In this document: piece after piece, positions 682-11,536 of the stretch
Layout of the letters: each line of letters starts with the position of its first letter
Position numbering within the stretch: position 1 is the first letter of the stretch
From: Candidatus Eiseniibacteriota bacterium
GTDB taxonomy: Bacteria; Eisenbacteria; RBG-16-71-46
Length of the DNA: 64,000 nucleotides
Assembly: GCA_041483195.1 (NCBI GenBank)
Contig: JBGPFC010000004.1
Coordinates: 32,001-96,000 of the forward strand
Direction: 5' to 3'
The notes under the pieces: model-generated
Database searches by the model: none
Told to the model about the DNA's origin: nothing
Seen by the model: the letters and a program-made list of their open reading frames with translations, nothing else
Program-made: the position numbers and the translations under genes

Positions 682-3105
682 ATGAAGCTGCGTCGCGGCG
701 TGGCCGTGCTGGCCCTGCTGCTGATTCACCCGCGCGTTCTCCATGCGCAACCGCCCACCGAGGGCGTGGTCACTGGCATCGTGACCGACGCGTCGACCCG
801 CGCCCCGCTGGAAAACGCCAACTTGCTGCTGCGCAGCCGGGCCGATTCCAGCCGCGTCTTCGCGACCACGACCCTCAAGGATGGCGCGTTCCTCTTCCCC
901 CACGTTCCGCCCGGCGCCTACGTCGTGGAATGCAGCCTCATCGGGCATACCAGCTTCCGCTCGCCGGAGTTCGTGCTCGGCGCGGCGAGCCCACGCATGG
1001 ATCTTCGGACCATCTCCCTGAAACCATCGGCACTGCTGCTCGACGAGGTCGTGATCACTTCGGAGAGGAGTCTCTTCAACAACAGCATCGACCGCCGCGT
1101 GTACAACGTCGATCACGACCTGATGGCCAAGTCCAGCTCGGTAAGCGATCTCCTGCAGAACATCCCATCGGTCCAGGTGGACGTCGATGGCGGCGTTAGC
1201 CTGCGCGGCTCGCCCGACGTGATGATCCTGATCAACGGCAAGAAGTCGCCGCTGATGGGCAAGAGCCGGGCGGACGTGCTGCAGCAGCTCCCGGCCGCCA
1301 CCATCGAGAAGATCGAGGTGATCACGAACCCCTCGGCCCGATTCACGCCAGAGGGCACGTCGGGCATCATTAACATCGTCACCAGGAAGGGCGCCGGATC
1401 CGGGGTCAACGGCGACGTGACGGGGCACGTGGGCACGGCGAGCCGAAGCAACGAGAACCTCTCGCTCGGATACAGGCCGGGCAAGCTCGAGCTGTTCGTG
1501 AACTACAGCCACCGCGACGACCGAAGAAAGCGCATCGGCACGGACGCGCGGAGCCAGATTGCCTCGGGCTCGACGCACAATTCCCTCGAAGACAATCAGA
1601 TCGCGATGCGCCCGCGCGTGCACCTCGGAACTCTGGGCTTGAGCTACCACCCGGATCCGAAGAACACCCTGGAGCTTTCGTCGGAGTACTTCGACCGCCG
1701 GCCCTCGCGCGAGGGGCTCTCCACGATCGTCTCGCAGGGCACTGGCGGCGCGATCCTCTCGGACTACGACCGGCGGCAGTCGGGCTACGAGTCGGAGCAA
1801 GAGACGGGCGGCACCGCCGCATTCGAGCACGACTTTCCGAAGGAGGACCACAATCTGCGGGTCGAGGCCAACGTCTCCGACGTCCCGCAGACGGAGCTGG
1901 CGAACTTCGTCGAGCACTGGCGCACGCCCGCGAAGCCCGATCCCGCGAGCACCATTCTGCTCCGACAGACGGAGCGCCAGGGGCACGTCACGCTCGATTA
2001 CGCCGACCCGGTGGACGAGCAGTCGAAGCTCGAGGCGGGTTACGCGCTGGAAGTGCACCGACAGGACATCCGCTCCGACGCCGAGTCGCTCGACGTGATC
2101 CAGCAGGCGTTCCGACAGGACCTCTCGAAGACGTATCGGTTCAAGCTGGATCAGGCGATCCATGCGGTGTACGGCACCTACGAGCGCTCGCTCGGCAAGT
2201 TCAGCGTGCTCGGAGGGCTGCGGGCGGAGTACGCAAGCGTGAGGTCCGACCTCGTCACCGGCGGGTCGCCGTTCGACGATAAGTACTCCGGGCTCTATCC
2301 GACGCTGCACATGGCCTACCAGGCAAGCGAGCGCGGCCAGGTGCAGCTCAACTACAGCCGCCGGATCCGGAGGCCGGAGAGCGACGACCTCAATCCGTTC
2401 CCGGAATACACGGACCCGTACAACATCGATTCCGGCAACCCGCGGCTCAAGCCCGAATCGATCCACTCGTACGAGCTCGGCTACCGGCTGCGGGGCGAGC
2501 ATTTCTCCTTGGCCCCCACGATCTACTACCGCGACCGGCGCGATGGATTCACGCGGGTGACGCAGGCGATCAACGACTCCACGTTCCTCCGGACCATGGC
2601 GAATCTCGCGAGCGATCGATCCGCGGGGCTCGAGCCGGTGGTGACGATGTCGGTGGGGCGGGCGCTGCAGGCGAACCTGAACGGGAACGTGTTCTACGAC
2701 CAGATCGACGCGTCGAACATCGGGTACGCCGGCAAGAAGTCGGTGGTCTCGTGGAGCGGGACGTTCAACGCGACCGTCACCCCGTGGACCGCGACCGCGT
2801 TCGAGCTGAACTCCAACTACCGCTCGGCCCGGCTCACCCCGCAGGGAGACTCGCGCCCGAGCTTCGGCCTGAACGTGGGGGCGAGACAGAATCTGTTTCG
2901 CGATCGAGTCTCAGTGACCGTTGCCGTCTCGGACCTGCTCAAGACCCAGAGGCAGGAGACGCGGCTGGATGTCTCCGGGATCCAGCAGCGGGTGACGAAT
3001 AAACGGGATGCGCAGATCGTGTACGCGGGCGTTACCTATCACTACGGGCGGCCGGCGAAGGACGAGAAGAAGGAGAAGGGGCTGCAGTGGGAGGACGCGC
3101 CGTAG
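682..3105 (+). CDS. TonB-dependent receptor / outer-membrane beta-barrel family protein
   Basis: Signal peptide, CarboxypepD-like N-domain, plug motifs (DLLQNIPSV, IEKIEVITNPSARF, GIINIVT) and barrel motif GNPRLKPE. Confidence 0.93.
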   Translation: MKLRRGVAVLALLLIHPRVLHAQPPTEGVVTGIVTDASTRAPLENANLLLRSRADSSRVFATTTLKDGAFLFPHVPPGAYVVECSLIGHTSFRSPEFVLGAASPRMDLRTISLKPSALLLDEVVITSERSLFNNSIDRRVYNVDHDLMAKSSSVSDLLQNIPSVQVDVDGGVSLRGSPDVMILINGKKSPLMGKSRADVLQQLPAATIEKIEVITNPSARFTPEGTSGIINIVTRKGAGSGVNGDVTGHVGTASRSNENLSLGYRPGKLELFVNYSHRDDRRKRIGTDARSQIASGSTHNSLEDNQIAMRPRVHLGTLGLSYHPDPKNTLELSSEYFDRRPSREGLSTIVSQGTGGAILSDYDRRQSGYESEQETGGTAAFEHDFPKEDHNLRVEANVSDVPQTELANFVEHWRTPAKPDPASTILLRQTERQGHVTLDYADPVDEQSKLEAGYALEVHRQDIRSDAESLDVIQQAFRQDLSKTYRFKLDQAIHAVYGTYERSLGKFSVLGGLRAEYASVRSDLVTGGSPFDDKYSGLYPTLHMAYQASERGQVQLNYSRRIRRPESDDLNPFPEYTDPYNIDSGNPRLKPESIHSYELGYRLRGEHFSLAPTIYYRDRRDGFTRVTQAINDSTFLRTMANLASDRSAGLEPVVTMSVGRALQANLNGNVFYDQIDASNIGYAGKKSVVSWSGTFNATVTPWTATAFELNSNYRSARLTPQGDSRPSFGLNVGARQNLFRDRVSVTVAVSDLLKTQRQETRLDVSGIQQRVTNKRDAQIVYAGVTYHYGRPAKDEKKEKGLQWEDAP

Positions 3106-3397
3106 GGGGGTGAGTGCGGGCGCGGCGCGTGATCGAGAACGTCGCTGCGGTGCTGGAGGCGGGCTGCATCGCTGTTGTGACGCTTCCAAAGGAGTTCTCG
3201 CTGCCGTTCGTGAAGGCGGCGTTCAAGTGCGGGCTGACGGGTAAGGCGCGCGATCCGGTGTTTGAGGATCGCCCCGCCTCGCATTCTGGAGGGCGATGAA
3301 ACTCTTCGAGGGCGTGGGGCTGGAGCGGTATTGCTCGCGATGCCTTGGGTCTCGATTATCAAGGCCACGGATGCGTCCAGAGCGTTGCAGACGCCAT

Positions 3398-4039
3398 TCA
3401 CTCTGGTTTCTTCGCCCCACGGGCAGCTGAATCGCGCACTCCCGGCGCAAGACCGCGCACAAGTCCACGAGCGCTGTCAGGACTTGAGCGGAGAACCGCC
3501 GCCGTCTCCAATGAGGGCGCTTGCCGTGGGATCACCGCTGTGTCCATCGCACCGACAAAGTCGCGCTCGATCGTAGGAGCAAGCCGCGGGACCGCGTAGT
3601 TGGCGCCCATGCTCGCGAGCACACCGAGGCCAAACACCACAGCGCCCCGAAGAAACTGACGCCACCGTGTCTTGTGTCGGACAAAGAATGGCATGGACCT
3701 GACTACCCACTCCCCCAGGGCAAATCCCAAGAGCACGCTTACAAACCCGAGCATCCAGGTGCCCGAGGCACGATAGGCCACAAGCATCCAGTAGAAGCTC
3801 AGGGTCGCCATCGTCGAAGCGAAGACCCATTTGAACGCCAGCAGCTTCGCACTATCCCGTCCTGGTGGCGGAAACGTCTCGAATGTCTCCTGCATGAGTA
3901 AGAGCGCCAGCAGGATGAAACAGCTCTCGAGCCACGCCGCTGACTTTCCCCGCCCGAGGCCCCGACTGAAGACCGCGGCTGCAATCGTGAAACTCGTCAC
4001 CGTGACAAGGGCCGAGTTGTTCCTGACCCACTCCCGCAA
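3398..4039 (-). CDS. hypothetical multi-pass membrane protein, possibly 5'-truncated
   Basis: About 5 hydrophobic segments. TTG start without a clear RBS, and the frame stays open upstream into the MITE at 4095. Confidence 0.45.
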   Translation of the reverse strand: MREWVRNNSALVTVTSFTIAAAVFSRGLGRGKSAAWLESCFILLALLLMQETFETFPPPGRDSAKLLAFKWVFASTMATLSFYWMLVAYRASGTWMLGFVSVLLGFALGEWVVRSMPFFVRHKTRWRQFLRGAVVFGLGVLASMGANYAVPRLAPTIERDFVGAMDTAVIPRQAPSLETAAVLRSSPDSARGLVRGLAPGVRDSAARGAKKPE

Positions 4040-4094
4040 TTCATGGCGAATGGGCAGAACCTGATCGGGGTCGACGATCAGGGGGCTCTCCTCG

Positions 4095-4170
4095 GAGCCT
4101 GTCCTGATTTCTGTGCAAGCCCCTTCCCGGTCACGCGGTCAGGCGCTTACACAAAATCAGGTACAGGCTC
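4095..4170. mobile_element. 76-bp MITE / internally deleted IS256-like remnant
   Basis: Imperfect ~26-bp terminal inverted repeats: GAGCCTGTCCTGATTTCTGTGCAAGC (4095-4120) and GCTTACACAAAATCAGGTACAGGCTC (4145-4170). The ends resemble IS256-family IRs. No target duplication seen. Confidence 0.6.
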
Positions 4171-4317
4171 GGCGATTTTCCGACACCCTTGGAGATTGGA
4201 GCTTTCACTACGCTGGCTCCCCGTGATGCCCCTGTGCCGCGACGCCCGCTCCGCCAGTTCGCCGAACCAAGAGGTTGCTCCGAGTTGTATGTTCCTCGAA
4301 GGCAAAATGCCGTCCGC

Positions 4318-5685
4318 CTAGAGTTCGCGCCGCAGCCGCTCCTCCGCGGCGCGGATTTCTCGGTTCAAACGCACCCAGAGCGCGCCGACCTGCTTCCGCA
4401 ACGGCATGCTTTCCGCCGCCAAGGCTGCGTCGCGTCCGTAGTGGATGAAGTTCCGATTCCGGGCGCGCTTCGGGTCTTGCGGTCCAAAAGTTCTGGCACT
4501 TCGACCCATGAACGAGAACTTCCGATACAACTTCCGCCGAAAGATCCTATCAATACGATTCCGCCGAGCCGCTGACTCTGCCGACCGAACACCATGCACC
4601 ATCTTCGCGATGAATCCCGCGACTGTTGCTTGCCTCAGCCGAATCGCATTCCCATCCCAGGCAAGGCCAAGGTACTGCAGAGAAACCGGCGACTTGTCCA
4701 GCACTTGCCCCTCTGTCGAGAGCCCAAGACCCGTCTGCCGACCAGCCGTTGATCGGAACGCCACCCGAATCGTCTTGGATTCCTGCACCGTAAGCTTAAC
4801 GCCTTCGACTGCCGAGATGACTGTAGCTTCGGCTTGTCTTGCGTATCCCGGCGGGCAGACCACCAGGATATCGTCGCTGTAGCGTCGATAGCTCGCCCCG
4901 AATTCGCCCAACTGTTCATGCAACGACTCGTCCCCTGCCAACATGTAGAGGTTCGCCAACACCGCGCTAATGGGCGAACCCTGAGGGATGCCGGCCGCCG
5001 AGCGGTTGCATTGAACGTGTGGGCGCAGCATGCTCCTGAACTCCTCAGGGCTGCATACGCGGGCGCCGGCGCGGCCTCGCCGGCGCGGAACGTCCCGACC
5101 CAGGAGATTGCGCACGCTTCCCCGATCGATCCAGCTGTACCGGGTGATTGCCCTGTAGATCGCGAAATGGTCTCTTGGGAGCGTTCGCCCCGTCCCCAAT
5201 ATGCCCAGCCAACGCGCTTTCAGAACACCGTGGTCAAGACTACCGAAGAAATCCTTGAGGTCGAGCGCGATCACATCGCAGTCGCCCGCATGTGCAATCT
5301 CTCGAAATGCGGCAACTGCAAAATCTACGTTGTTCCTCGGTGGACTCAGTTGACGATACGCAAGAACCGAAGCGCCAAAAGGACGCCGATAGTGCTGATC
5401 GAGCATCGTGGTGAGGTCAGAGGCGTACTTCGAGTAAATGTGGCTATCCATGTGGGCCGCAGAGCAGAGCTCACGCTGCTTGGGCTGACCCCGATGGCGC
5501 TTTTTCGTGTCAGGGTCCCGGACATAGCGTGGGGTAGTCTTCGTGAAGCGAAGAAATGGCCAGAACGCGTGTCTGGCGACACATTCGGGATCGACGCAAT
5601 AGGCGATGGCGCGGTCCGGGGCGACCGGCCGGTCGAAATGCGCGTATCCGCGCTGGCGGAACAACGGATGTCTCTCGGCGCTCAC
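4318..5685 (-). CDS. drt2: DRT2-type (UG2) antiviral reverse transcriptase, ~455 aa
   Basis: RT motifs LDLKDFFGSLDH, GIPQGSPISAVLANLYM, YRRYSDD, LQYLG. N-terminus HPLFRQRGYAHFDRPV...HAFWPFL...AAHMDSHIY and C-terminus RKLYRKFS...RNFIHYG match my recollection of Klebsiella DRT2 (PWFRKRGYLHFDEPV, SSHLDSHIY, KKLYARYS, RNFLTYG). GTG at 5685 is preferred over ATG 5727, which lies inside an RNA hairpin. Confidence 0.9.
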   Translation of the reverse strand: MSAERHPLFRQRGYAHFDRPVAPDRAIAYCVDPECVARHAFWPFLRFTKTTPRYVRDPDTKKRHRGQPKQRELCSAAHMDSHIYSKYASDLTTMLDQHYRRPFGASVLAYRQLSPPRNNVDFAVAAFREIAHAGDCDVIALDLKDFFGSLDHGVLKARWLGILGTGRTLPRDHFAIYRAITRYSWIDRGSVRNLLGRDVPRRRGRAGARVCSPEEFRSMLRPHVQCNRSAAGIPQGSPISAVLANLYMLAGDESLHEQLGEFGASYRRYSDDILVVCPPGYARQAEATVISAVEGVKLTVQESKTIRVAFRSTAGRQTGLGLSTEGQVLDKSPVSLQYLGLAWDGNAIRLRQATVAGFIAKMVHGVRSAESAARRNRIDRIFRRKLYRKFSFMGRSARTFGPQDPKRARNRNFIHYGRDAALAAESMPLRKQVGALWVRLNREIRAAEERLRREL

Positions 5686-5699
5686 GGATGATTTCCGAT

Positions 5700-5978
5700 G
5701 TAGCGGTGGAGGGCGGATCGACGGCATCCGCAGACGCCCTCCACCTCAAAGTTACCGAAGCACCGTGACGAAGCACTTCGAGTATGTCCACGCCCGTCGT
5801 CCTAGGACAATCGAAAGGAGCGTATGATCGTGATGCTGATCCTGCTCGTCGCGCTGATCGTCTCACCGTGGCCCGACTTCGGGCGGCAGGTGGCCGGCTG
5901 GGCCGGGTCCGCGTTGGTTGCGGCACTCACAGGCGAGTTGCAGCACACCCCTCCGCTTGAGCATCAACCCCAAGCGCG
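5700..5978 (-). ncRNA. DRT2-associated ncRNA (template + scaffold), ~280 nt
   Basis: Lies directly upstream of the RT and downstream of a sigma70 promoter. Stems (+ coordinates): 5954-5959/5971-5976, 5817-5826/5944-5954, 5871-5884, 5894-5906, 5785-5789/5805-5809, 5756-5760/5776-5780, 5705-5715/5735-5745. Loop-loop complement 5719-5724/5794-5799. Confidence 0.8.
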
Positions 5979-5985
5979 CAGGTAG
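5824..5985 (+). CDS. neo: Neo-like hidden ORF antisense to the DRT2 ncRNA (single genomic unit, 53 aa)
   Basis: AAAGGAG-cgt-ATG, then MIVMLILLVALIVSPWPDFGRQVAGWAGSALVAALTGELQHTPPLEHQPQARR*. Helix-Pro break-helix pattern, and the frame is stop-free across the predicted template. Below the ORF-track size cutoff. Confidence 0.6.
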   Translation: MIVMLILLVALIVSPWPDFGRQVAGWAGSALVAALTGELQHTPPLEHQPQARR

Positions 5986-6013
5986 AGTAAGTCCCGCGTT
6001 GGGCGCCGGTCAA
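5984..6013 (-). promoter_or_regulatory. sigma70-type promoter for ncRNA-drt2
   Basis: Minus strand TTGACC (6013-6008)-N18-TACTCT (5989-5984). The predicted TSS near 5977 falls at the base of the first hairpin. Confidence 0.7.
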
Positions 6014-6118
6014 GCACCTGATCAGCTGTTGGAGGCCAGGGACCCGAGCCGGGATTCCCTAGGCTCCATTCCTTAAGAGGGGACACCCCACGAGCTTGGG
6101 CACGTTAGAGCTACCGGT

Positions 6119-8317
6119 TCACTCAGCAAGGATCTCGTCCGCGAGATCGTCGAGGCCCGCGCGTGCGACAGGACCAACTTTCGTCTTCGCTCGGTTAATG
6201 TGATCCCGCACCCGGCGCCTGATCACGCGCTCCGGGAGATCCCGAATCCCCTCACGCACTGCCTCAGCCTCGTCCAGAATTTCCGGCGTCATGTAACGCA
6301 CAATACCAGCATCCATAATAAGGGGCAGGCGCTCTTCTGTGGCTTTTGTGACCCGTCGCCTAACTGGGCCAAACGCCAAGTAGTTCACGAGAAAGTCTGC
6401 GCTCAGAACCGGCGAGTCAGGCGCCGTCCCTTTCATGAGCGATCCGAGGCGCGGTCTGAGATCAAACGCGCGCCGATCGATAGTCAGCCACCACGCATCA
6501 TATCCGAATGGGGATGCCTTCTGCATCGACCGCAACTGTGTGATCCCACAATAGCATTCTACGTCGTGCTCCACCAAATGCGTGATAGCCATCTCATCAA
6601 TCAACATGTCCTTCGGTCTCCGACGCGCCTCATGAGCCTCATACCAGACCTGCTGCAGGGCGTTTCTTAGGTCCGCACCTGCTCTATCCCGCTCCTCGTG
6701 CAAGTCGCGACGCTGCACCCCAAACTCATCTTCGAGATAGCTCGCGATATCGTTCTCCGGCTGTTCGTCCCCACGAAAGTTTTCCAGCCAGCCCGCAAAC
6801 TCTCCCCGCGTGCGACCGCTGGCTGCGAAGCGGTCGAGCAAGTAGGGTACTCTTCCAATCCACTGCCCAGCCTTCATTCGTGCGCACGCCACAGCACGGT
6901 TCATGTGCCGCTCGATTTCTTCGATTACGCCGGCGGTCACGTAAAGCTCGATACCTGCCTCGCGCGCCGCTCGCATCATTCTCGTAAACCGTCCGCCTCC
7001 TTCTTCGTCAAGAGACTCTGCCAAGAGCGGCAACGCTATTGTCGTGTCGAGCCAGAGCCTTCCGCCAGAAAACATCTTCCCAACCGCCGCTTCGACATCT
7101 GGCGTTTGTCGCAAGAACGCGAGGAGTGTATGCGCATCGATCAGCGTGCGCAGATGCCCCCGAATCGCCGGGTCATCGCTAAGAACCACCTCGCTGACAC
7201 CACCCTCAAGTGCCGCCATCCAGTCCACGCCGTCGCGCTTTGGTAATGCGTTTGCCGCCAAGTCAGCCAGTGCTGCTGTCTTGAGATCGTCGCTTGGGGG
7301 CATCGTCGGCCCGCCGCTCTGCACGGCCAAGGCAAACGCCTGACTGCGCTGGAAGAGGACAGCTTCTGACGTTCTCCTCATAGCGGCAGCGAGGAGTCGG
7401 CTGTCCTCAGGTGCAGCAGTGCTGTCCTGCAAGGTCGCGTCAGCAAGATTCTGTATCGCATCCTGGAGCCTAGCTTCAGCAAGTGCCGCTGCAATCTTGA
7501 ATTCGGCCAAGCGCAAGAGCTCCTCATGACTCAGGCAGAACTCGTCGTCCTTCGGGTAATGCCTTATGGCCTTTTTTGCCAAGCGCCTCAGAGCTGACTC
7601 AACGTAGGGCGCAATATCCTTCGCGTCGTGCCCCGGGAGCACGGCGCACACTCGCTCCCGCACCGCAGCACGGCTAAGCCGGTGGTTCGGGTCGGTGTGC
7701 GCCAACGCCGAGCGCACAAGTGCCTCAAAGGCCAGCTTTGTTAGGCCCTTCTCTCTGATGTCGTCCTGCCACTGGAGGCCGAGGTAGGTGAGTGCCGCTA
7801 CGGCCTCGGTGCCCGTGAGATCAGTTGCCCCTCTCGGACGGAGACCGTAATCGACGAGCAGTGGCTCGACTATCACCCGAGCCAGTTCATCTGCCGCGGC
7901 CTCCCGGGCATGATCTGTGTTGACGCGCTCGATGAACCAGCGCAGATCGCGAACATCCAGTCCTAGCGAGAACTCCTTGCGAAGCCTGCGCTTCAATTCA
8001 TCGGCAGCTGCACCTATGTTCTGGTTGCACATGTAAACTAGCGCGATCGCTTGTGGATGCGTCTTCTTCAGACGCTGCGCTGTCTTTACAATCTTGTTCT
8101 CCCAATTCGCGGCGACCGAGTACTGTACGGCGACCTGCGGCTCGTGTTCAGGGGAGAATAGCTCGCTGTCACGACCTCCATCGCCGCTAGCCGCTGCCGT
8201 CGTGCGAAGTTCGGAGAATTCCGCGGCCAAGAATACGGACGACAAGTGCTCAAAACGCTCCCAATCAGAGGGCTGAAGCCTCTCCAACGCCAGCTGAAAG
8301 CGCCCGCTGTTCATCAT
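6119..8317 (-). CDS. hypothetical ~732 aa protein: N-terminal PD-(D/E)xK/Mrr-like nuclease domain + central PIN-like domain (candidate defence protein)
   Basis: GGAGG RBS before ATG 8317. N-terminal WERFEHL...GDGGRDSELF...VAVQYS (restriction-endonuclease-like). LWLDTTIALPLL...YVTAGVIEEIERH...EHDVEC...WWLTIDR (PIN-like acidic residues). Confidence 0.65.
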   Translation of the reverse strand: MMNSGRFQLALERLQPSDWERFEHLSSVFLAAEFSELRTTAAASGDGGRDSELFSPEHEPQVAVQYSVAANWENKIVKTAQRLKKTHPQAIALVYMCNQNIGAAADELKRRLRKEFSLGLDVRDLRWFIERVNTDHAREAAADELARVIVEPLLVDYGLRPRGATDLTGTEAVAALTYLGLQWQDDIREKGLTKLAFEALVRSALAHTDPNHRLSRAAVRERVCAVLPGHDAKDIAPYVESALRRLAKKAIRHYPKDDEFCLSHEELLRLAEFKIAAALAEARLQDAIQNLADATLQDSTAAPEDSRLLAAAMRRTSEAVLFQRSQAFALAVQSGGPTMPPSDDLKTAALADLAANALPKRDGVDWMAALEGGVSEVVLSDDPAIRGHLRTLIDAHTLLAFLRQTPDVEAAVGKMFSGGRLWLDTTIALPLLAESLDEEGGGRFTRMMRAAREAGIELYVTAGVIEEIERHMNRAVACARMKAGQWIGRVPYLLDRFAASGRTRGEFAGWLENFRGDEQPENDIASYLEDEFGVQRRDLHEERDRAGADLRNALQQVWYEAHEARRRPKDMLIDEMAITHLVEHDVECYCGITQLRSMQKASPFGYDAWWLTIDRRAFDLRPRLGSLMKGTAPDSPVLSADFLVNYLAFGPVRRRVTKATEERLPLIMDAGIVRYMTPEILDEAEAVREGIRDLPERVIRRRVRDHINRAKTKVGPVARAGLDDLADEILAE

Positions 8318-8690
8318 GTCGTCCCTCCAATCACAGCTAGATCCTGCGCCCTCGGCCACTCCATAGATATTCGAGGACGTAGTGGGGATCCTTGTCATGA
8401 GTCATTGGCCCTACCGTCGCGAGATGGTTTCGCCCCTCGCCTACGAAGAGTTCCGCGCGACGCAGATCGCGCTGCGATGGCATCCGCGCCCCGAATGATT
8501 CGACAGCGGTCCCAGTCTTCACCATAGCAAAGCGCGGGAGAGGTTCCCAGTCCGTCGGGCCTTCGCCTTCGAAACTTCGCGATGAACCAACTGATCGCTG
8601 CTCGGAGTTGTGTAGGTCGTGCTCGTCCGCGATTGCAAGACTGTCGGATTCAAGCCTTGTCTCAAGGCTGCCGCGTACGACTTCCATCTT

Positions 8691-9008
8691 CTACCCCTCC
8701 CCCCGCTTCTTCGCCAGCACGCCCTCCCACGCCTTCATCCGCCTCGCGATCTCCGCCTCGAATCCCTCCTGCGTCGGCTCGTAAAACCGACGCCCCGCGA
8801 GTTCATCCGGCAGGTGCGCCTGATCGGTGATCCGATCCGGGTCGTCGTGTGCGTACTGGTAGCCCGCGCCGTAGCCCAGGTCCTTCATTAGCCGCGTCGG
8901 CGCATTGCGGATCACGAGCGGCGGCGGCAGGCTGCCGCACTTCTCGACCTCCTCGTTCGCGCGTCCGAAGCCCGCGTACACCGCCTCGCTCTTGGGCGCG
9001 ACGGCCAG
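8691..9008 (-). pseudogene. rarA: orphan duplicate of the rarA 3' end (direct repeat of 11560-11869)
   Basis: 8699-9008 aligns ungapped with 11560-11869, with about 27 mismatches in 310 bp by hand count. Encodes LAVAPKS...PPPLVIRNAPTRLMKDLGYGAGYQYAHDD...KKRGEG* with no rarA 5' part. Confidence 0.9.
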
Positions 9009-9039
9009 CCCTTGCGAATCGCGCCCACTGCCAGCGCGG

Positions 9040-9942
9040 CTAAGCACGGTCCTTTGGCCGCCTGATGTGTCGGTCGATTGAATCTTGGAGGGACCTCGTC
9101 ATGCCTGCCTCCATCGCCACCGCCTGAACCAATCTGTTGCCGCGCTGGACCAGCGCACGCGCCAGATCCAGCCTCTCGGGCCCGAGCGTGTCACCATCCA
9201 TGTCACCCAGCAGGGAAACTAGCTTTTCCTGGTAAGCGACTACCTCTTCGGCAAGACCCGTCGTAATTCTCGGCCTTCTTGTGGCCTCGGAAACCTCCGC
9301 CAAGAGCGGCCTCAGCTCTCCGCTAAGGACCTCGCGCAGGACGTTCAGCGGAACCCCGCCCCCCCCGTCGCCGATCCTCTTCTCGACGCTCGCGACCGAG
9401 ATTCGAAGCTCCCCTACGGCTGCCAACACATCCGCGAGCTGCCGCTGCTCAGGATTGCCGCTTCGTCTCAGGAATTCGAGGTCCAGGGCGACCGAAATGG
9501 GGCTGTCCACTTCAGCCCCGGGCTGTTGCAGGCTCTTCATCTGCCGCTCAATCTCTCCTCTTGCCGCCTCCACGCTATCCAGATCGCGGTGGTCTACCTC
9601 CACGCTTCTGATGGCGGCAACATCGAATGGAATTCTTTCCCCTCGCTGTATTAGTTGGACGTATGGCTTTCTCAAGACATGGCGAATCGCCAATTCATAG
9701 AACACATTAGGATTGCGCTCCGTTAGGTCGGCGATCACGATTGGATCATCGACAATGTGTTGAATCACTTGTGTCGTTATCAGTCCCGGCTCACTAATCT
9801 GATCCGCGCGGATGGCATTATATCCACAGGCCCGCGCAGCTGGCTGGACAACGTACCGGAGGATTTGGTCCGATCGTCGCCGTGTATCTGAGTCCACGTC
9901 ACCAATCGGAGCTATGAATAGGCAAATCTTCTTGTCGTCCAT
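9040..9942 (-). CDS. nucleoside 2-deoxyribosyltransferase (NDT)-like domain protein with helical C-terminus
   Basis: GGAGG RBS. Motifs CLFIAPIG...RRRSD...RADQISEPGLIT...IVIADLTERNPNVFYELAIRH...IPFDV. Confidence 0.8.
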   Translation of the reverse strand: MDDKKICLFIAPIGDVDSDTRRRSDQILRYVVQPAARACGYNAIRADQISEPGLITTQVIQHIVDDPIVIADLTERNPNVFYELAIRHVLRKPYVQLIQRGERIPFDVAAIRSVEVDHRDLDSVEAARGEIERQMKSLQQPGAEVDSPISVALDLEFLRRSGNPEQRQLADVLAAVGELRISVASVEKRIGDGGGGVPLNVLREVLSGELRPLLAEVSEATRRPRITTGLAEEVVAYQEKLVSLLGDMDGDTLGPERLDLARALVQRGNRLVQAVAMEAGMTRSLQDSIDRHIRRPKDRA

Positions 9943-10047
9943 TGATCCACCTCCGAGACCTCTACGCCACCAGGCGCATGTGACCGCAGGCCCTCAAGCA
10001 GATCGCACGCTGAACGACTTGCTGCGGGGTCTGCACCGGTTCGACGC

Positions 10048-11193
10048 CTACAAAAAACTGACGCTCACGAGCGTCACGTCGTCCTCCTGTCCAATCTCGG
10101 CAGAGAACTCCGTCCCCGCTGAAATAAGCTCGTCGAGAAGCACCTCACCCCCCATTGGCCAACGCGCAATCTGCTCAACGACTCGCGTCGCGCCGAAGAA
10201 GTCGTCTGGGCCTCTAAGATCCAGCATTCCATCCGTGAGGAGAAGAAGTCGCTCGGAGCCCACAAACGGCACTACTTGTTTTACGTGCGGAAGCGATCGC
10301 AGCTCAGGCATCGGTGAAATCATTGGTCCACTTTCCGTCAGAGGCACCGGTGGCCAATCGACTCCCCACTTGTATGGTGACGGGTGGCCCGCGTTCACGT
10401 ACTCGAGCACCTCGTTGTCGGGATCAATGCGCATCGCTACGAGTGTCACAAAATGAGTTTCAGTGCACTGGGCGAGTGACTCAGAGACGCGATGGACGAC
10501 GGCGTCTGGGGCAAAGTCTTCGGCGTTCGAGCTGTGAAACGCCGACTTCACGACAGCGGTCAGCATCGCCGGAGCGAGGCCGTGGCCGGCGATGTCCGCA
10601 AGAATCAACGCGACGCGCGAGCCGTCAAGGACTGCATAGTCTGCGAAATCACCACCGAGGCGAAATCGCGGTTTATAGCGGCAGGACAGTGAGAGCCGCC
10701 CGACGTTGGGGAACTTGGCTGGAACGAGGCCAGCCTGCAGGGCTCGCGCATCTTCAACTTCTCTCTTGTACCGCTGCCCGATGTGATATTCCTCGAGGAG
10801 CCATCGTTGGCTGAGACAGCGCTCCACAATGGCGCATAGCTCTTCGTCGCCAAACGGTTTCTGCAGATAGTAGAATGCGGTCTTCTGGAGTGCTTGCATG
10901 AGCCGATCGCCGAGCGTCTTGTAACCGGTCATGAGGATCACGTCTACGTCCGGAAGGAGCAGCTTCAGTTGATCGAGGAGTTCAAACCCAGCACTGTCGC
11001 TTTGGCCAAGAACCACATCGAGCATGATGAGCTTCGGGCGGAATTCTCTAGCGAGGTCTGGCGCTGCTCGCCAAGAGGCTGTGGTGGCGAGGTCATGCTG
11101 ATCCTGCAGCGCGAGATCAATTCGATGAAGTAGCTTTGGGTCGTCGTCGACGACCAGGATCCGCGTTCGGCGAGGACGACCATCCTGAATCAT
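10048..11193 (-). CDS. response regulator receiver + PP2C/SpoIIE (RsbU-like) phosphatase
   Basis: REC domain (ILVVDDD, LIMLDV, YLQKPF) and PP2C motifs GGDFAD, ADIAGHG, VNAGHP, LLTDGM, EDDVTLV. Start uncertain (11193 vs 11319). Confidence 0.88.
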   Translation of the reverse strand: MIQDGRPRRTRILVVDDDPKLLHRIDLALQDQHDLATTASWRAAPDLAREFRPKLIMLDVVLGQSDSAGFELLDQLKLLLPDVDVILMTGYKTLGDRLMQALQKTAFYYLQKPFGDEELCAIVERCLSQRWLLEEYHIGQRYKREVEDARALQAGLVPAKFPNVGRLSLSCRYKPRFRLGGDFADYAVLDGSRVALILADIAGHGLAPAMLTAVVKSAFHSSNAEDFAPDAVVHRVSESLAQCTETHFVTLVAMRIDPDNEVLEYVNAGHPSPYKWGVDWPPVPLTESGPMISPMPELRSLPHVKQVVPFVGSERLLLLTDGMLDLRGPDDFFGATRVVEQIARWPMGGEVLLDELISAGTEFSAEIGQEDDVTLVSVSFL

Positions 11194-11536
11194 CCGCGGA
11201 AACTCCTGTGGGCTTGCGCGGCGAGTGAAAGTTGCATCGCCTTCGCCAGTTCCTCTCGGGGGTGCGCACGCACATTCGCTGGCACGGAGATTGACGGCAG
11301 AGACGCGGAAAGCAGCCAACGAGGAGAGATTGATGAGTTGAGCGCTGGCAGGATAGCATACAAAGTCAAATCACGCTGGAAGATCCTCATGAACTTGGCT
11401 GCCGAAGCTCTCGAAATCGGGGAGATTTGATTCGAGCGCGAGGAGCGGGGATCCTTCACCTCGGTCGATGCGCGGCGATTGACTGTGCGGAACTCACACG
11501 CATTCGATGGTTGGTGAAAACTGAGTTCACGCCAGT

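Follow-up and report, generated by a model that had tools for sequence, protein, structure and literature searches.

The window analysed here comprises the whole stretch of 64,000 nucleotides taken from contig JBGPFC010000004.1 of a Candidatus Eiseniibacteriota bacterium, and all positions refer to it. Its minus strand carries a reverse transcriptase gene preceded by a spacer of 391 nt whose predicted RNA, read from that same strand, resembles DRT2 non-coding RNAs (ncRNAs) in architecture. The features of this part of the locus are the following:

4318..5727, minus strand: Drt2 reverse transcriptase gene (PADLOC, NCBIfam and PDB matches)
5705..5745, minus strand: predicted 'tower' hairpin within the 3' scaffold of the ncRNA, with an 11-bp stem and a 19-nt loop (pair probabilities 0.81-1.0)
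5794..5799, minus strand: CGACGG, candidate 5' strand of a pseudoknot whose other strand would be CCGUCG (5719-5724, tower loop)
5944..5953, minus strand: 5' strand of the basal stem, straddling the 5' edge of the proposed template and pairing with 5815-5824 (MFE structure)
5954..5976, minus strand: hairpin adjoining the basal stem on its 5' side, candidate 5' handle (predicted pairing)

At the protein level, profile and structure matches make the product of 4318-5727 a member of the Drt2 family. It is assigned to Drt2 by the PADLOC model PDLC03757 (E 2.6e-121) and matches the solved Drt2 structures PDB 9c0i and 9lje with E about 1e-73 (1.4e-73 for 9c0i), which places it at some distance from those enzymes; with 392.2 bits it passes the NCBIfam equivalog NF041746, whose cut-off is 390, by only 2 bits. 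Its active site, YSDD, is aligned to YCDD in the solved Drt2 enzyme, the residues Y283, S284, D285 and D286 being invariant across 18 relatives. The longest open reading frame (ORF) of the gene starts at ATG 5727, a codon that falls within the tower loop, and the true start is probably GTG 5685, judging from two comparisons that bear on this choice: the alignment with 9c0i sets query residue 18 opposite chain residue 4, and the N-termini of the related proteins P0003, P0004 and P0007 lie 10-12 aa ahead of the RGYAHFD motif. Read in another frame, the tower loop encodes the peptide DAVDP, which P0002 and P0005 also contain in their N-terminal extensions, and the distance from DAVDP to RGY is 76 nt here versus 75-78 nt in those two relatives. 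Together with the putative structured RNA encoded upstream on the same strand, the reverse transcriptase would make of 4318-6060 a DRT2 (UG2) anti-phage system. The locus is a divergent example of this known system and not a new kind of system.

Relatives of the enzyme were searched for in genome contigs (14 loci, 24-37% identity) and in metagenomes (at least 80 loci, 26-37% identity), and the closest relatives with DNA among the matches listed have a reverse transcriptase 26-38% identical to the one studied here. Higher identities, of 45-57%, are those of the related proteins P0002-P0009. A total of 94 DRT2 loci (L002-L096) were fetched, 82 of which were scanned for joints. Within the same phylum, relatives of the reverse transcriptase appeared in none of 205 other genomes; no such relatives were found in viral contigs, and the 22 plasmid records retrieved all remained below 35% identity to the enzyme.

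As regards the RNA, RNAfold predicts a basal stem in which 5953-5944 pair without interruption with 5815-5824 (10 pairs, four of them G-U), with a probability of about 0.47-0.63. The first-pass annotation of this DNA had closed its repeat unit with a stem of slightly different register. Its strands can indeed pair in the minus-strand RNA (GGAG 5954-5951 with CUCC 5820-5817, GUGUG 5948-5944 with CAUAC 5826-5822), but RNAfold favours the shifted register and the duplex is no stronger than those of shuffled sequences (z -0.3). The fold of the whole spacer is likewise no better than that of shuffles (z -0.02). Basal-stem duplexes yield z-values close to 0 at this locus and in the relatives alike, so that these statistics carry no weight. 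The relatives show the geometry predicted here, their 5' flank being paired with template bases complementary to the Shine-Dalgarno and -10 region. The hairpin at 5954-5976, in which 5954-5956 pair with 5974-5976 with a probability of 0.73-0.98, is a candidate for a 5' handle by analogy with the published one. A search of Rfam over 4000-9000 on both strands returned no match, just a sub-threshold chance snoRNA-like score; blastn and nhmmer detected no sequence similarity between the ncRNA and the 94 fetched loci, and a covariance model (R1) built from ten scaffolds of the clade of relatives with AUUG triplets gave no meaningful match in 5500-6300 (best E 5.4).

The proposed neo frame and its split promoter

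The strand opposite the ncRNA contains an ORF and promoter-like hexamers in an unusual order. The first-pass annotation had taken the plus strand as the cDNA and proposed that a promoter split between the two ends of a repeat unit, and a reading frame without end (neo), are assembled only when the unit is concatemerised. All the motifs on which it relied are present on the plus strand, including the GAG triplets at 5818-5820 and 5935-5937, which were confirmed by direct reading:

5815..5826, plus strand: Shine-Dalgarno AAGGAG (5815-5820) and ATG (5824-5826) of the neo frame (direct reading)
5823..5828, plus strand: candidate -10 element TATGAT, overlapping the ATG (direct reading)
5918..5923, plus strand: TTGCGG, -35 element of a 117-nt alternative (direct reading)
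5938..5943, plus strand: candidate -35 element TTGCAG, brought to N17 spacing ahead of TATGAT by a 138-nt joint only

In its linear form, the DNA between 5600 and 6250 contains no complete promoter. Across a 138-nt joint, TTGCAG-N17-TATGAT matches the consensus at 8 of 12 positions, a consensus that is that of E. coli and may not be the host's. Hexamers resembling the -10 are infrequent in this genome of 70% GC (0.065 per kb per strand). The -35 is weak on its own, since TTGCAG agrees with TTGACA at three of six positions and only through TTG, and with four TTG triplets within 5915-5960, it is not unusual for one of them to be suitably spaced.

In the frame of ATG 5824, the stretch 5806-5982 is free of stops, the flanking ones lying at 5803 and 5983, and there are further in-frame starts at GTG 5830 and ATG 5833. 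This is why the 46-aa and 39-aa repeats put forward earlier are both in frame and stop-free as claimed. Nevertheless, any period divisible by 3 within this 59-codon open frame would be stop-free, so that stop-freeness constitutes weak evidence. As to codon composition, 37 of 41 codons of the ATG 5824 frame, and of that frame only, end in G or C (binomial p 9e-5 versus local GC), and this bias is present before 5947 versus 7 of 12 codons after it (Fisher p 0.02). The mean Kyte-Doolittle hydropathy over 19 aa reaches a peak of 2.17 in each 46-aa repeat.

Conservation of the frame was found in P0127, an 88-aa ORF on a 3353-nt Logan contig. It probably comes from the same contig as P0003, also on a 3353-nt contig, a reverse transcriptase that is 56% identical to the Drt2 of the locus and the nearest of those found to be accompanied by an ORF of this kind. 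P0127 is identical to the neo frame at 27 of 48 positions (56%) with one 3-aa gap and no frame-breaking gap (E 4e-16 in the pairwise comparison, 2.9e-7 against 1.84 billion proteins), and the motif G-E-L is retained in both. A word-based search with the neo peptide recovered the window's own ORF only, and a search with alignment recovered P0127 too. As this conservation is seen in a single relative and in the protein only, it counts weakly as a sign of a conserved gene. HMMER additionally matched P0125, P0126 and P0128, which were rejected as unrelated repeat proteins sharing a PWP-x-YG-like motif.

The end of P0127 is informative with respect to where the unit stops. Its upstream part corresponds to frame 1 of the window, while its PLRLS corresponds to frame 2 at 5948, a match obtained by exact-word matching and inferred nucleotides; BLASTP of P0127 against window frame 2 gave no alignment. 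This frame switch suggests that coding conservation ends between 5941 and 5947, and that 5948-5962 is apparently conserved as nucleic acid.

These data bear on whether there is a Neo protein at all. The reverse transcriptase and its RNA might instead provide defence without one, perhaps by means of a cDNA serving some other purpose, as is suspected for divergent DRT2 clades, the plus-strand ORF and the hexamers then arising as by-products of structured RNA in DNA rich in GC. Such a situation would fit with the statement of Tang et al. 2024 (bioRxiv 10.1101/2024.05.08.593200), in the part of that report drawn on here, that they could not annotate Neo in divergent DRT2 clades, where it proved difficult to annotate and other mechanisms are possible. 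It would also fit with the weak -35, the narrow passing of the Drt2 cut-off, the shuffle-like stem and fold statistics, and the frequency of stop-free frames at this GC content, two of the three plus-strand frames being open over the unit. Nonetheless, a by-product would not be expected to confine its third-position bias to one frame, to bring together a Shine-Dalgarno, an ATG and a rare -10 hexamer, to persist without frameshift in a relative whose ORF has diverged to the same extent as its reverse transcriptase, and to lose its frame in that relative exactly at the predicted end of the unit. Moreover, of 1200 random genome windows of 460 nt, just 14 united all four features, namely a joint with microhomology, a frame without stops, a junction promoter with a score of at least 8 and a Shine-Dalgarno with a start codon. 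Defence without Neo is therefore considered quite improbable.

The proposed repeat joint and its period

The position of the joint was approached through the 82 scanned relatives, in which candidates with a promoter score of 11 or more were collected on the cDNA-sense strand, the opposite strand serving as control. In the Klebsiella-like relatives the scan returned ACA(G) triplets in the RNA, a -35 at -12, a -10 at +11 and periods of 99-126 nt, thus recovering the published architecture. Among all 82 loci, the period was divisible by 3 in 39/52 cDNA-sense candidates versus 14/39 on the control strand, and a stop-free candidate was present in 34 loci versus four on the control strand. A Shine-Dalgarno with an in-frame start is present in 32 of the 34 confident relatives. 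Periods divisible by 3 range from 99 to 159 nt and include 138 nt in L070 and L073. The realignment triplets differ between clades (ACA, CGUU, AUUG, CAA, and UUGUA in 3/3 Xanthomonadaceae loci), and consequently a triplet other than ACA is normal.

At the locus itself, six frame-preserving joints with a microhomology of at least 3 nt exist, and only one of them, with a period of 138 nt, keeps both the Shine-Dalgarno and the -35/N17/-10 arrangement with the joint inside the promoter spacer. It defines the following elements:

5810..5947, plus strand (neo sense): proposed repeat unit of 138 nt and 46 codons, with its template in the minus-strand RNA (joint analysis)
5807..5809, minus strand: proposed realignment triplet X-2, reading UGU as RNA and ACA in the cDNA sense, immediately beyond the template 3' end
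5945..5947, minus strand: proposed triplet X-1, UGU, the last template bases copied

The two ACA triplets (5807-5809 and 5945-5947) lie 138 nt apart, and the match extends to five of six positions when 5804-5809 is compared with 5942-5947. Across the joint 5947|5810 the ATG 5824 frame stays open and AAGGAG 5815-5820 is kept, with the -35 at -10 and the -10 at +13; in 33 of 34 relatives these elements lie at 6-12 nt. The geometry is that of the family also in the 3' scaffold, whose offsets are consistent with a template end at 5810. The tower occupies +65 to +105 from that end and matches the towers of the relatives in size and offset, and the candidate pseudoknot strand lies at +11, within the +5 to +15 of clear relatives. 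In the AUUG clade the corresponding strand is found at +11 to +15, where its pairing covaries, and the tower at +70 to +117 with a loop of 20 nt. The pseudoknot at the locus comprises six Watson-Crick pairs and remains a candidate, such pairing being reached in about 10% of shuffles (502/5000). On these sequence comparisons, 138 nt is the best supported of the periods considered, and the joint is proposed to lie at 5947|5810.

Two side observations concern the joint: the +13 of its -10 element is just beyond the 6-12 range of the relatives, and 3-nt microhomologies are common, as the number of frame-preserving joints at the locus illustrates.

The same DRT2 mechanism, with the same period and the identical TTGCAG-N17-TATGAT promoter, could also operate with a joint at 5954|5817, that is, with the stem-bounded unit 5817-5954 of the first-pass annotation and T-P-P-E-R as junction codons. 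This placement would bring the -10 to +6, inside the range of the relatives, and would retain GGAG ahead of the ATG in an open frame. It is, nonetheless, probably wrong. There is no microhomology at 5954|5817, single-base matches only being available at period 138; the pseudoknot strand would fall at +18, beyond the +5 to +15 of clear relatives; and the stem of the relatives has its 3' half within the template, which it does not bound. In addition, the bases 5948-5954 belong to the stretch that P0127 reads in another frame, past the point at which coding conservation seems to stop. Altogether, a joint at 5954|5817 looks unlikely.

The alternative of 117 nt and 39 codons, which would arise by realignment on the GAG triplets (unit 5821-5937, joint 5937|5821, promoter TTGCGG-N16-TATGAT), combines a 3-nt microhomology with an open frame, and 117 nt is the commonest period reported in the published account for Klebsiella-like systems. 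With this period the second triplet would also fall within the right-hand half of the basal stem, in agreement with the model described by Tang et al. 2024, a geometry that 117 nt or a 123-nt joint at 5944|5822 would fit better than 5947|5810 does. Against it, the Shine-Dalgarno before the ATG would be lost, and the joint would follow the -35 by 14 nt and precede the -10 by 2 nt, as it does in none of the 34 relatives. The pseudoknot strand would be displaced to +22, and the Leu after GE would be dropped although G-E-L is kept in P0127. Only a slim chance is given to this period.

Marginally slimmer still is the chance that the system uses another of the frame-preserving joints, of 123 nt (5944|5822), 141 nt (5962|5822), 153 nt or 156 nt (5978|5823), all of which leave the frame open. 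Each has some merit: the 123-nt joint is the best fit to the published arrangement of one triplet abutting the stem and the other in its right half, the 141-nt joint has the longest microhomology (4 nt), and the 156-nt joint yields the highest-scoring promoter (9/12, TTGAGC-N16-TATGAT). However, the 123-, 141- and 156-nt joints are without Shine-Dalgarno, the 123- and 141-nt joints have no promoter, the 153-nt joint keeps the Shine-Dalgarno but lacks the promoter, and the 156-nt joint falls directly at the -10. The three longest units would moreover take in 5948-5962, which is in a different frame in P0127, together with the A/T-ending codons found after 5947.

Proposed mechanism and known systems compared

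By homology with the Klebsiella system, the Drt2 reverse transcriptase would copy an internal template of the ncRNA, from 5947 to 5810. On reaching the 5' end of this template, the 3' end of the nascent DNA would re-anneal to the short repeat lying beyond the template 3' end, UGU 5947-5945 being exchanged for UGU 5809-5807, and successive re-annealing would generate tandem cDNA repeats. Second-strand synthesis would then set TTGCAG 17 nt upstream of TATGAT at each joint, and the tandem repeat would read as an endless ORF. Each repeat would comprise AAGGAG, the ATG, a helix of strong hydrophobicity, another rich in Gly and Ala, and a short linker with charged residues. As the -10 overlaps the ATG, a transcript would be translatable only from the following repeat onward. 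Concatemers, transcript, production of the protein, exact joint and toxicity are all inferred for this locus. We give a slightly better than even chance to the whole reading, namely a DRT2 system with a 138-nt template at 5947-5810, UGU realignment, a junction promoter and an endless neo ORF.

The core of the first-pass annotation, in which the plus strand is the neo sense with a split promoter and an ORF endless only on concatemerisation, is thus supported: a Drt2 gene adjoins the unit, distant relatives have the same architecture and a close relative has a conserved ORF. In contrast, its description as a new Neo variant was overstated, given that the periods of the relatives already include 138 nt and that published work describes DRT2 loci by the thousand and repeats of varying length. 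Contigs assembled at about 5x depth from four of 23 sediment metagenome runs (X1, X3, X6 and X7) contained no joints, variants or junction-bearing loose ends, although contigs cannot reveal rare cDNA.

The closest known counterpart is the DRT2/neo system of Klebsiella pneumoniae (Tang et al. 2024, bioRxiv 10.1101/2024.05.08.593200; Wilkinson et al. 2024, PMC12039810). As far as the published descriptions drawn on here extend, both loci have a Drt2 gene with an ncRNA, predicted here, upstream on the same strand, and a template, proposed here, whose antisense ORF is stop-free across the joint. In both, a -10 is located near the cDNA 5' end and a -35 near its 3' end, which at the present locus would likewise form a promoter only at joints, and a Shine-Dalgarno and an ATG lie inside the unit. 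Here the 5' flank is predicted to pair with the -10 region as well, the 3' hairpin is long with a candidate pseudoknot, and the repeat would also be hydrophobic and helical. The differences are also clear: the period is 138 nt (46 aa) here versus 120 nt (40 aa), the proposed triplets are UGU versus ACA, the promoter is TTGCAG/TATGAT versus TTGACA/TATAAT, and the ncRNAs have no detectable sequence similarity. A further difference from Klebsiella is that the -10 and the start codon overlap here and that the promoter spacer contains the Shine-Dalgarno. With the fetched loci, the present one shares the use of clade-specific realignment motifs and a joint inside the promoter spacer, whereas most of them have near-consensus promoters. 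The start codon is located at least 14 nt downstream of the -10 start in 31 of 34 relatives, the nearest approaches to the overlap seen here being L037, where the ATG directly follows the -10, L043 and the wrapped start of L074.

It is tentatively conceivable, although doubtful, that these differences mark a divergent GC-rich clade, which would realign on UGU and not ACA, overlap its -10 with the start and keep the Shine-Dalgarno in the promoter spacer, and whose product would be a membrane-inserting helical-hairpin toxin and not a soluble solenoid. In such a clade, the overlap and the position of the Shine-Dalgarno would leave only cDNA of at least two repeats translatable, a threshold against leaky single copies. 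If true, the -10/start overlap and the membrane-like repeat would broaden current views on the gating and the delivery of toxicity; otherwise the locus would be one more among thousands of catalogued DRT2 loci. A hidden gene of the neo type would be recognisable from raw sequence in an environmental bacterium of 70% GC far from Klebsiella, a setting in which neither the published ACA rule nor the consensus promoter holds, and a concrete joint (5947|5810, 138 nt) can be proposed for a clade where the annotation of Neo has been reported as difficult.

Outside DRT2, the realignment of a DNA 3' end on a short repeat beside the template, and a template flanked by a stem on its 5' side and a pseudoknot on its 3' side, recall DRT10 and telomerase in the comparison presented in PMC12039810. 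Their repeats are of a few nucleotides and non-coding, while the 138-nt unit proposed here would be read as a gene. Circularised insertion sequences, an analogy drawn in the published work, likewise have -35 and -10 elements that are misordered in linear DNA and become united by end-joining, but there the joint is made on DNA by a transposase, whereas here it would result from template jumping by the reverse transcriptase.

The Drt2 gene and its surroundings

By sequence comparison, the minus-strand ORF at 4318-5727 is a Drt2 reverse transcriptase: its product matches Drt2 in PADLOC (E 2.6e-121), scores 392.2 bits against the NCBIfam Drt2 equivalog (cut-off 390) and aligns with the solved Drt2 structures (E 1.4e-73), its YSDD lying opposite YCDD. 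Translation probably starts at GTG 5685 rather than at ATG 5727, because the alignment with the solved enzyme begins with residue 18 opposite structure residue 4 and the N-termini of the related reverse transcriptases P0003, P0004 and P0007 extend 10-12 residues ahead of the RGYAHFD motif. Such a start would leave 5690-6060 free for the ncRNA. Within 5685-5727 (minus strand), a conserved hairpin of the ncRNA has the ATG of the longest Drt2 ORF in its loop, and similar N-terminal extensions translating the ncRNA are found in P0002, P0005 and P0008; on both grounds, the annotated Drt2 starts in the clade of this enzyme are probably placed too far upstream.

The GC content is 56-63% over the ~8 kb around the locus (3000-11500), against 70% for the genome, and a search of 205 further genomes from the same phylum turned up no Drt2 gene. 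The region looks like an acquired defence island: besides the DRT2 locus it carries a TIR-like gene, a RarA-like fragment and a 759-aa gene whose family is unknown.

Neighbouring ORFs of the DRT2 locus
6119-8398, minus strand: 759-aa ORF whose end adjoins the upstream side of the ncRNA
8691-9047, minus strand: 118-aa ORF matching RarA-type AAA ATPases in its C-terminal part only (E 4e-12)
9040-9942, minus strand: 300-aa ORF, weakly matched by a TIR effector in PADLOC (E 2.8e-7)

Searches of Pfam, PADLOC and PHROG gave no match for the 759-aa ORF, and NCBIfam only a partial, sub-threshold one to the BPSL0761 family (20 bits, E 0.00053); its ESM Atlas neighbours are hypothetical-protein clusters of 694-735 aa, mostly from Pseudomonadota (score 0.98). 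The 118-aa ORF scores far under the RarA-type family cut-offs and is probably a gene fragment. PHROG 3634, a family whose function is unknown, is matched strongly by the 300-aa ORF (E 5.5e-43).

The probable neo frame on the plus strand

In Klebsiella DRT2, as outlined by Tang et al. (bioRxiv 10.1101/2024.05.08.593200) and Wilkinson et al. (PMC12039810), the template for reverse transcription is a 120-nt part of an upstream ncRNA, and the enzyme jumps back via two ACA triplets, one within the template and the second just past it, to give a tandem cDNA. After second-strand synthesis TTGACA-N17-TATAAT spans every joint, and a stop-less ORF runs antisense to the ncRNA. Periods of 111, 117, 120 or 129 nt are reported there for close homologues, and Tang et al. 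describe Neo in divergent clades as difficult to annotate; a count of 13,034 DRT2 loci appears in a 2026 preprint.

The first-pass annotation had proposed that an endless ORF and its promoter assemble here by head-to-tail joining, either of a 138-nt unit (joint 5954|5817, the last unit base being joined to the first) or of a 117-nt unit (joint 5937|5821) via GAG triplets. The elements on which it relied are all present:

Elements read from the sequence
5818-5820, plus strand: GAG triplet
5823-5828, plus strand: TATGAT
5824, plus strand: ATG of the neo frame
5918-5923, plus strand: TTGCGG
5935-5937, plus strand: GAG triplet
5938-5943, plus strand: TTGCAG

The frame of ATG 5824 has stops at 5803 and 5983 and none from 5806 to 5982, so both proposed repeats (138 nt/46 aa and 117 nt/39 aa) are indeed in frame and stop-free. 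The proposed RNA stem likewise exists on the minus-strand RNA, although RNAfold prefers to shift the register, pairing 5953-5944 with 5815-5824 in an unbroken run of ten (pair probability ~0.5-0.6).

Stop-freeness (two of three frames open), the stem (z ~0), the -35 TTGCAG (3/6 matches, with four TTG triplets close by) and the pseudoknot (10% chance level) were graded as weak evidence. Graded stronger were the -10-like hexamer (0.065 per kb per strand), GC3 (37/41 in one frame, p 9e-5), homology of the frame to the 88-aa ORF P0127, and the co-occurrence of joint, frame and promoter with a Shine-Dalgarno site and start: of 1200 random windows, 14 show all of these (124 when the Shine-Dalgarno/start requirement is dropped). 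The locus is very probably a real DRT2 with a neo-type gene and template.

P0127 lies on a 3353-nt Logan contig, and the contig of P0003 is also 3353 nt long. P0003 is 56% identical to the reverse transcriptase studied here, and P0127 is 56% identical to the neo frame across 48 aa. The residues that follow the neo-like part of P0127, PLRLS, match frame 2 at 5948; the stretch 5948-5962 thus seems conserved, but in a frame that differs between the two loci. Being read in different frames, it would be conserved as RNA, with coding conservation stopping between 5941 and 5947, as judged from P0127 nucleotides deduced from protein.

The locus was found in 23 sediment metagenome runs, each represented by contigs and none labelled as RNA; in four of them the contigs represent the same strain at ~5x depth and show no joints, though data of this kind cannot reveal rare cDNA. 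At 5824-5861, ~35-nt stretches of other metagenome contigs match at ~85-89% with unrelated flanks, and probably reflect chance similarity in other organisms.

The 46-aa repeat comprises a hydrophobic segment, a turn, a Gly/Ala-rich helix and a charged linker. Its Met-led segment is very hydrophobic (Kyte-Doolittle 19-aa mean up to 2.17), and the repeats of relatives likewise have an initial Met followed by a hydrophobic helix; membrane activity is plausible. The linker includes N-R-K-E-R, coded by 5809-5823, whose first codon is formed across the joint in the repeat. Were a transcript to start at ~5835, its translation would begin no earlier than the following repeat, which is compatible with a concatemer.

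Joints in DRT2 relatives

Relatives with DNA comprised at least 94 loci (reverse transcriptase identity 24-38%), and no ncRNA sequence similarity was found between the 94 listed and the locus studied here. A scan of 82 loci looked for joints that had at least 3 nt of microhomology, recurred every 90-180 nt, left one frame free of stops and were spanned by a promoter; L039 was left out, its reverse transcriptase start lying beyond the contig end, as were 11 loci with <250 nt of upstream DNA or without a usable reverse transcriptase match. In Klebsiella-like loci the scan reproduces the published rule (RNA ACA(G), -35 at -12, -10 at +11). At a promoter score of at least 11, periods are divisible by 3 in 39 of 52 cDNA-sense candidates versus 14 of 39 control-strand candidates, and a stop-free candidate is present in 34/82 versus 4/82 loci. 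The joint signal is family-wide across the scanned relatives.

Periods span 99-159 nt, with 138 nt in L070 and L073, and realignment motifs are clade-specific (ACA, CGUU, AUUG, CAA and UUGUA), with UUGUA and 144 nt in all three Xanthomonadaceae loci. The -10 starts 6-12 nt past the joint in 33 of the 34 confident loci, and 32 of the same 34 carry a Shine-Dalgarno site and an in-frame start. Within the template, the segment complementary to the Shine-Dalgarno site and -10 is base-paired to the template's 5' flank. L002, L004 and L006 (Luteimonas, Pseudoxanthomonas and Stenotrophomonas) share a 144-nt candidate period with 5-nt microhomology (RNA UUGUA) and a conserved antisense ORF; a junction promoter of E. 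coli-consensus type was found in 0/3.

Choice of joint and period

Six joints at the locus are frame-open with microhomology of at least 3 nt (117, 123, 138, 141, 153 and 156 nt), and only that of 138 nt retains both AAGGAG ahead of the ATG and TTGCAG-N17-TATGAT with the joint in the spacer. Its microhomology is the cDNA-sense ACA at 5807-5809 and 5945-5947 (extended match 5/6), on account of which the unit is placed, with modest confidence, at 5810-5947 (joint 5947|5810) rather than at 5817-5954. The period itself is probably 138 nt. The earlier 138-nt proposal thus keeps its period and promoter and loses its joint, 5954|5817, which lacks microhomology. The drawing of Tang et al., which puts the second triplet into the basal stem's right half, counts against 5947|5810 and would favour joints giving 123 or 117 nt. 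Two further features count against it: its -10, at +13, lies one base beyond the range of the relatives, and its -10 overlaps the ATG while the spacer holds the Shine-Dalgarno site, an arrangement approached only by L037, L043 and the wrapped start of L074.

The scaffold offsets fit 5810 as the template 3' end. Counted from 5810, the tower, the 3' scaffold hairpin (11 bp, 19-nt loop), occupies +65 to +105, and the strand of the candidate pseudoknot is found at +11; in relatives with the AUUG motif, where pseudoknot covariation is seen, the strand lies at +11 to +15 and the tower at +70 to +117 (20-nt loop). The frame switch in P0127 would fit the same end. In another frame the tower loop encodes DAVDP, a peptide that P0002 and P0005 also contain in their over-long N-termini, equally far from RGY in all three; the loop sequence therefore appears conserved, also in agreement with a template ending at 5810.
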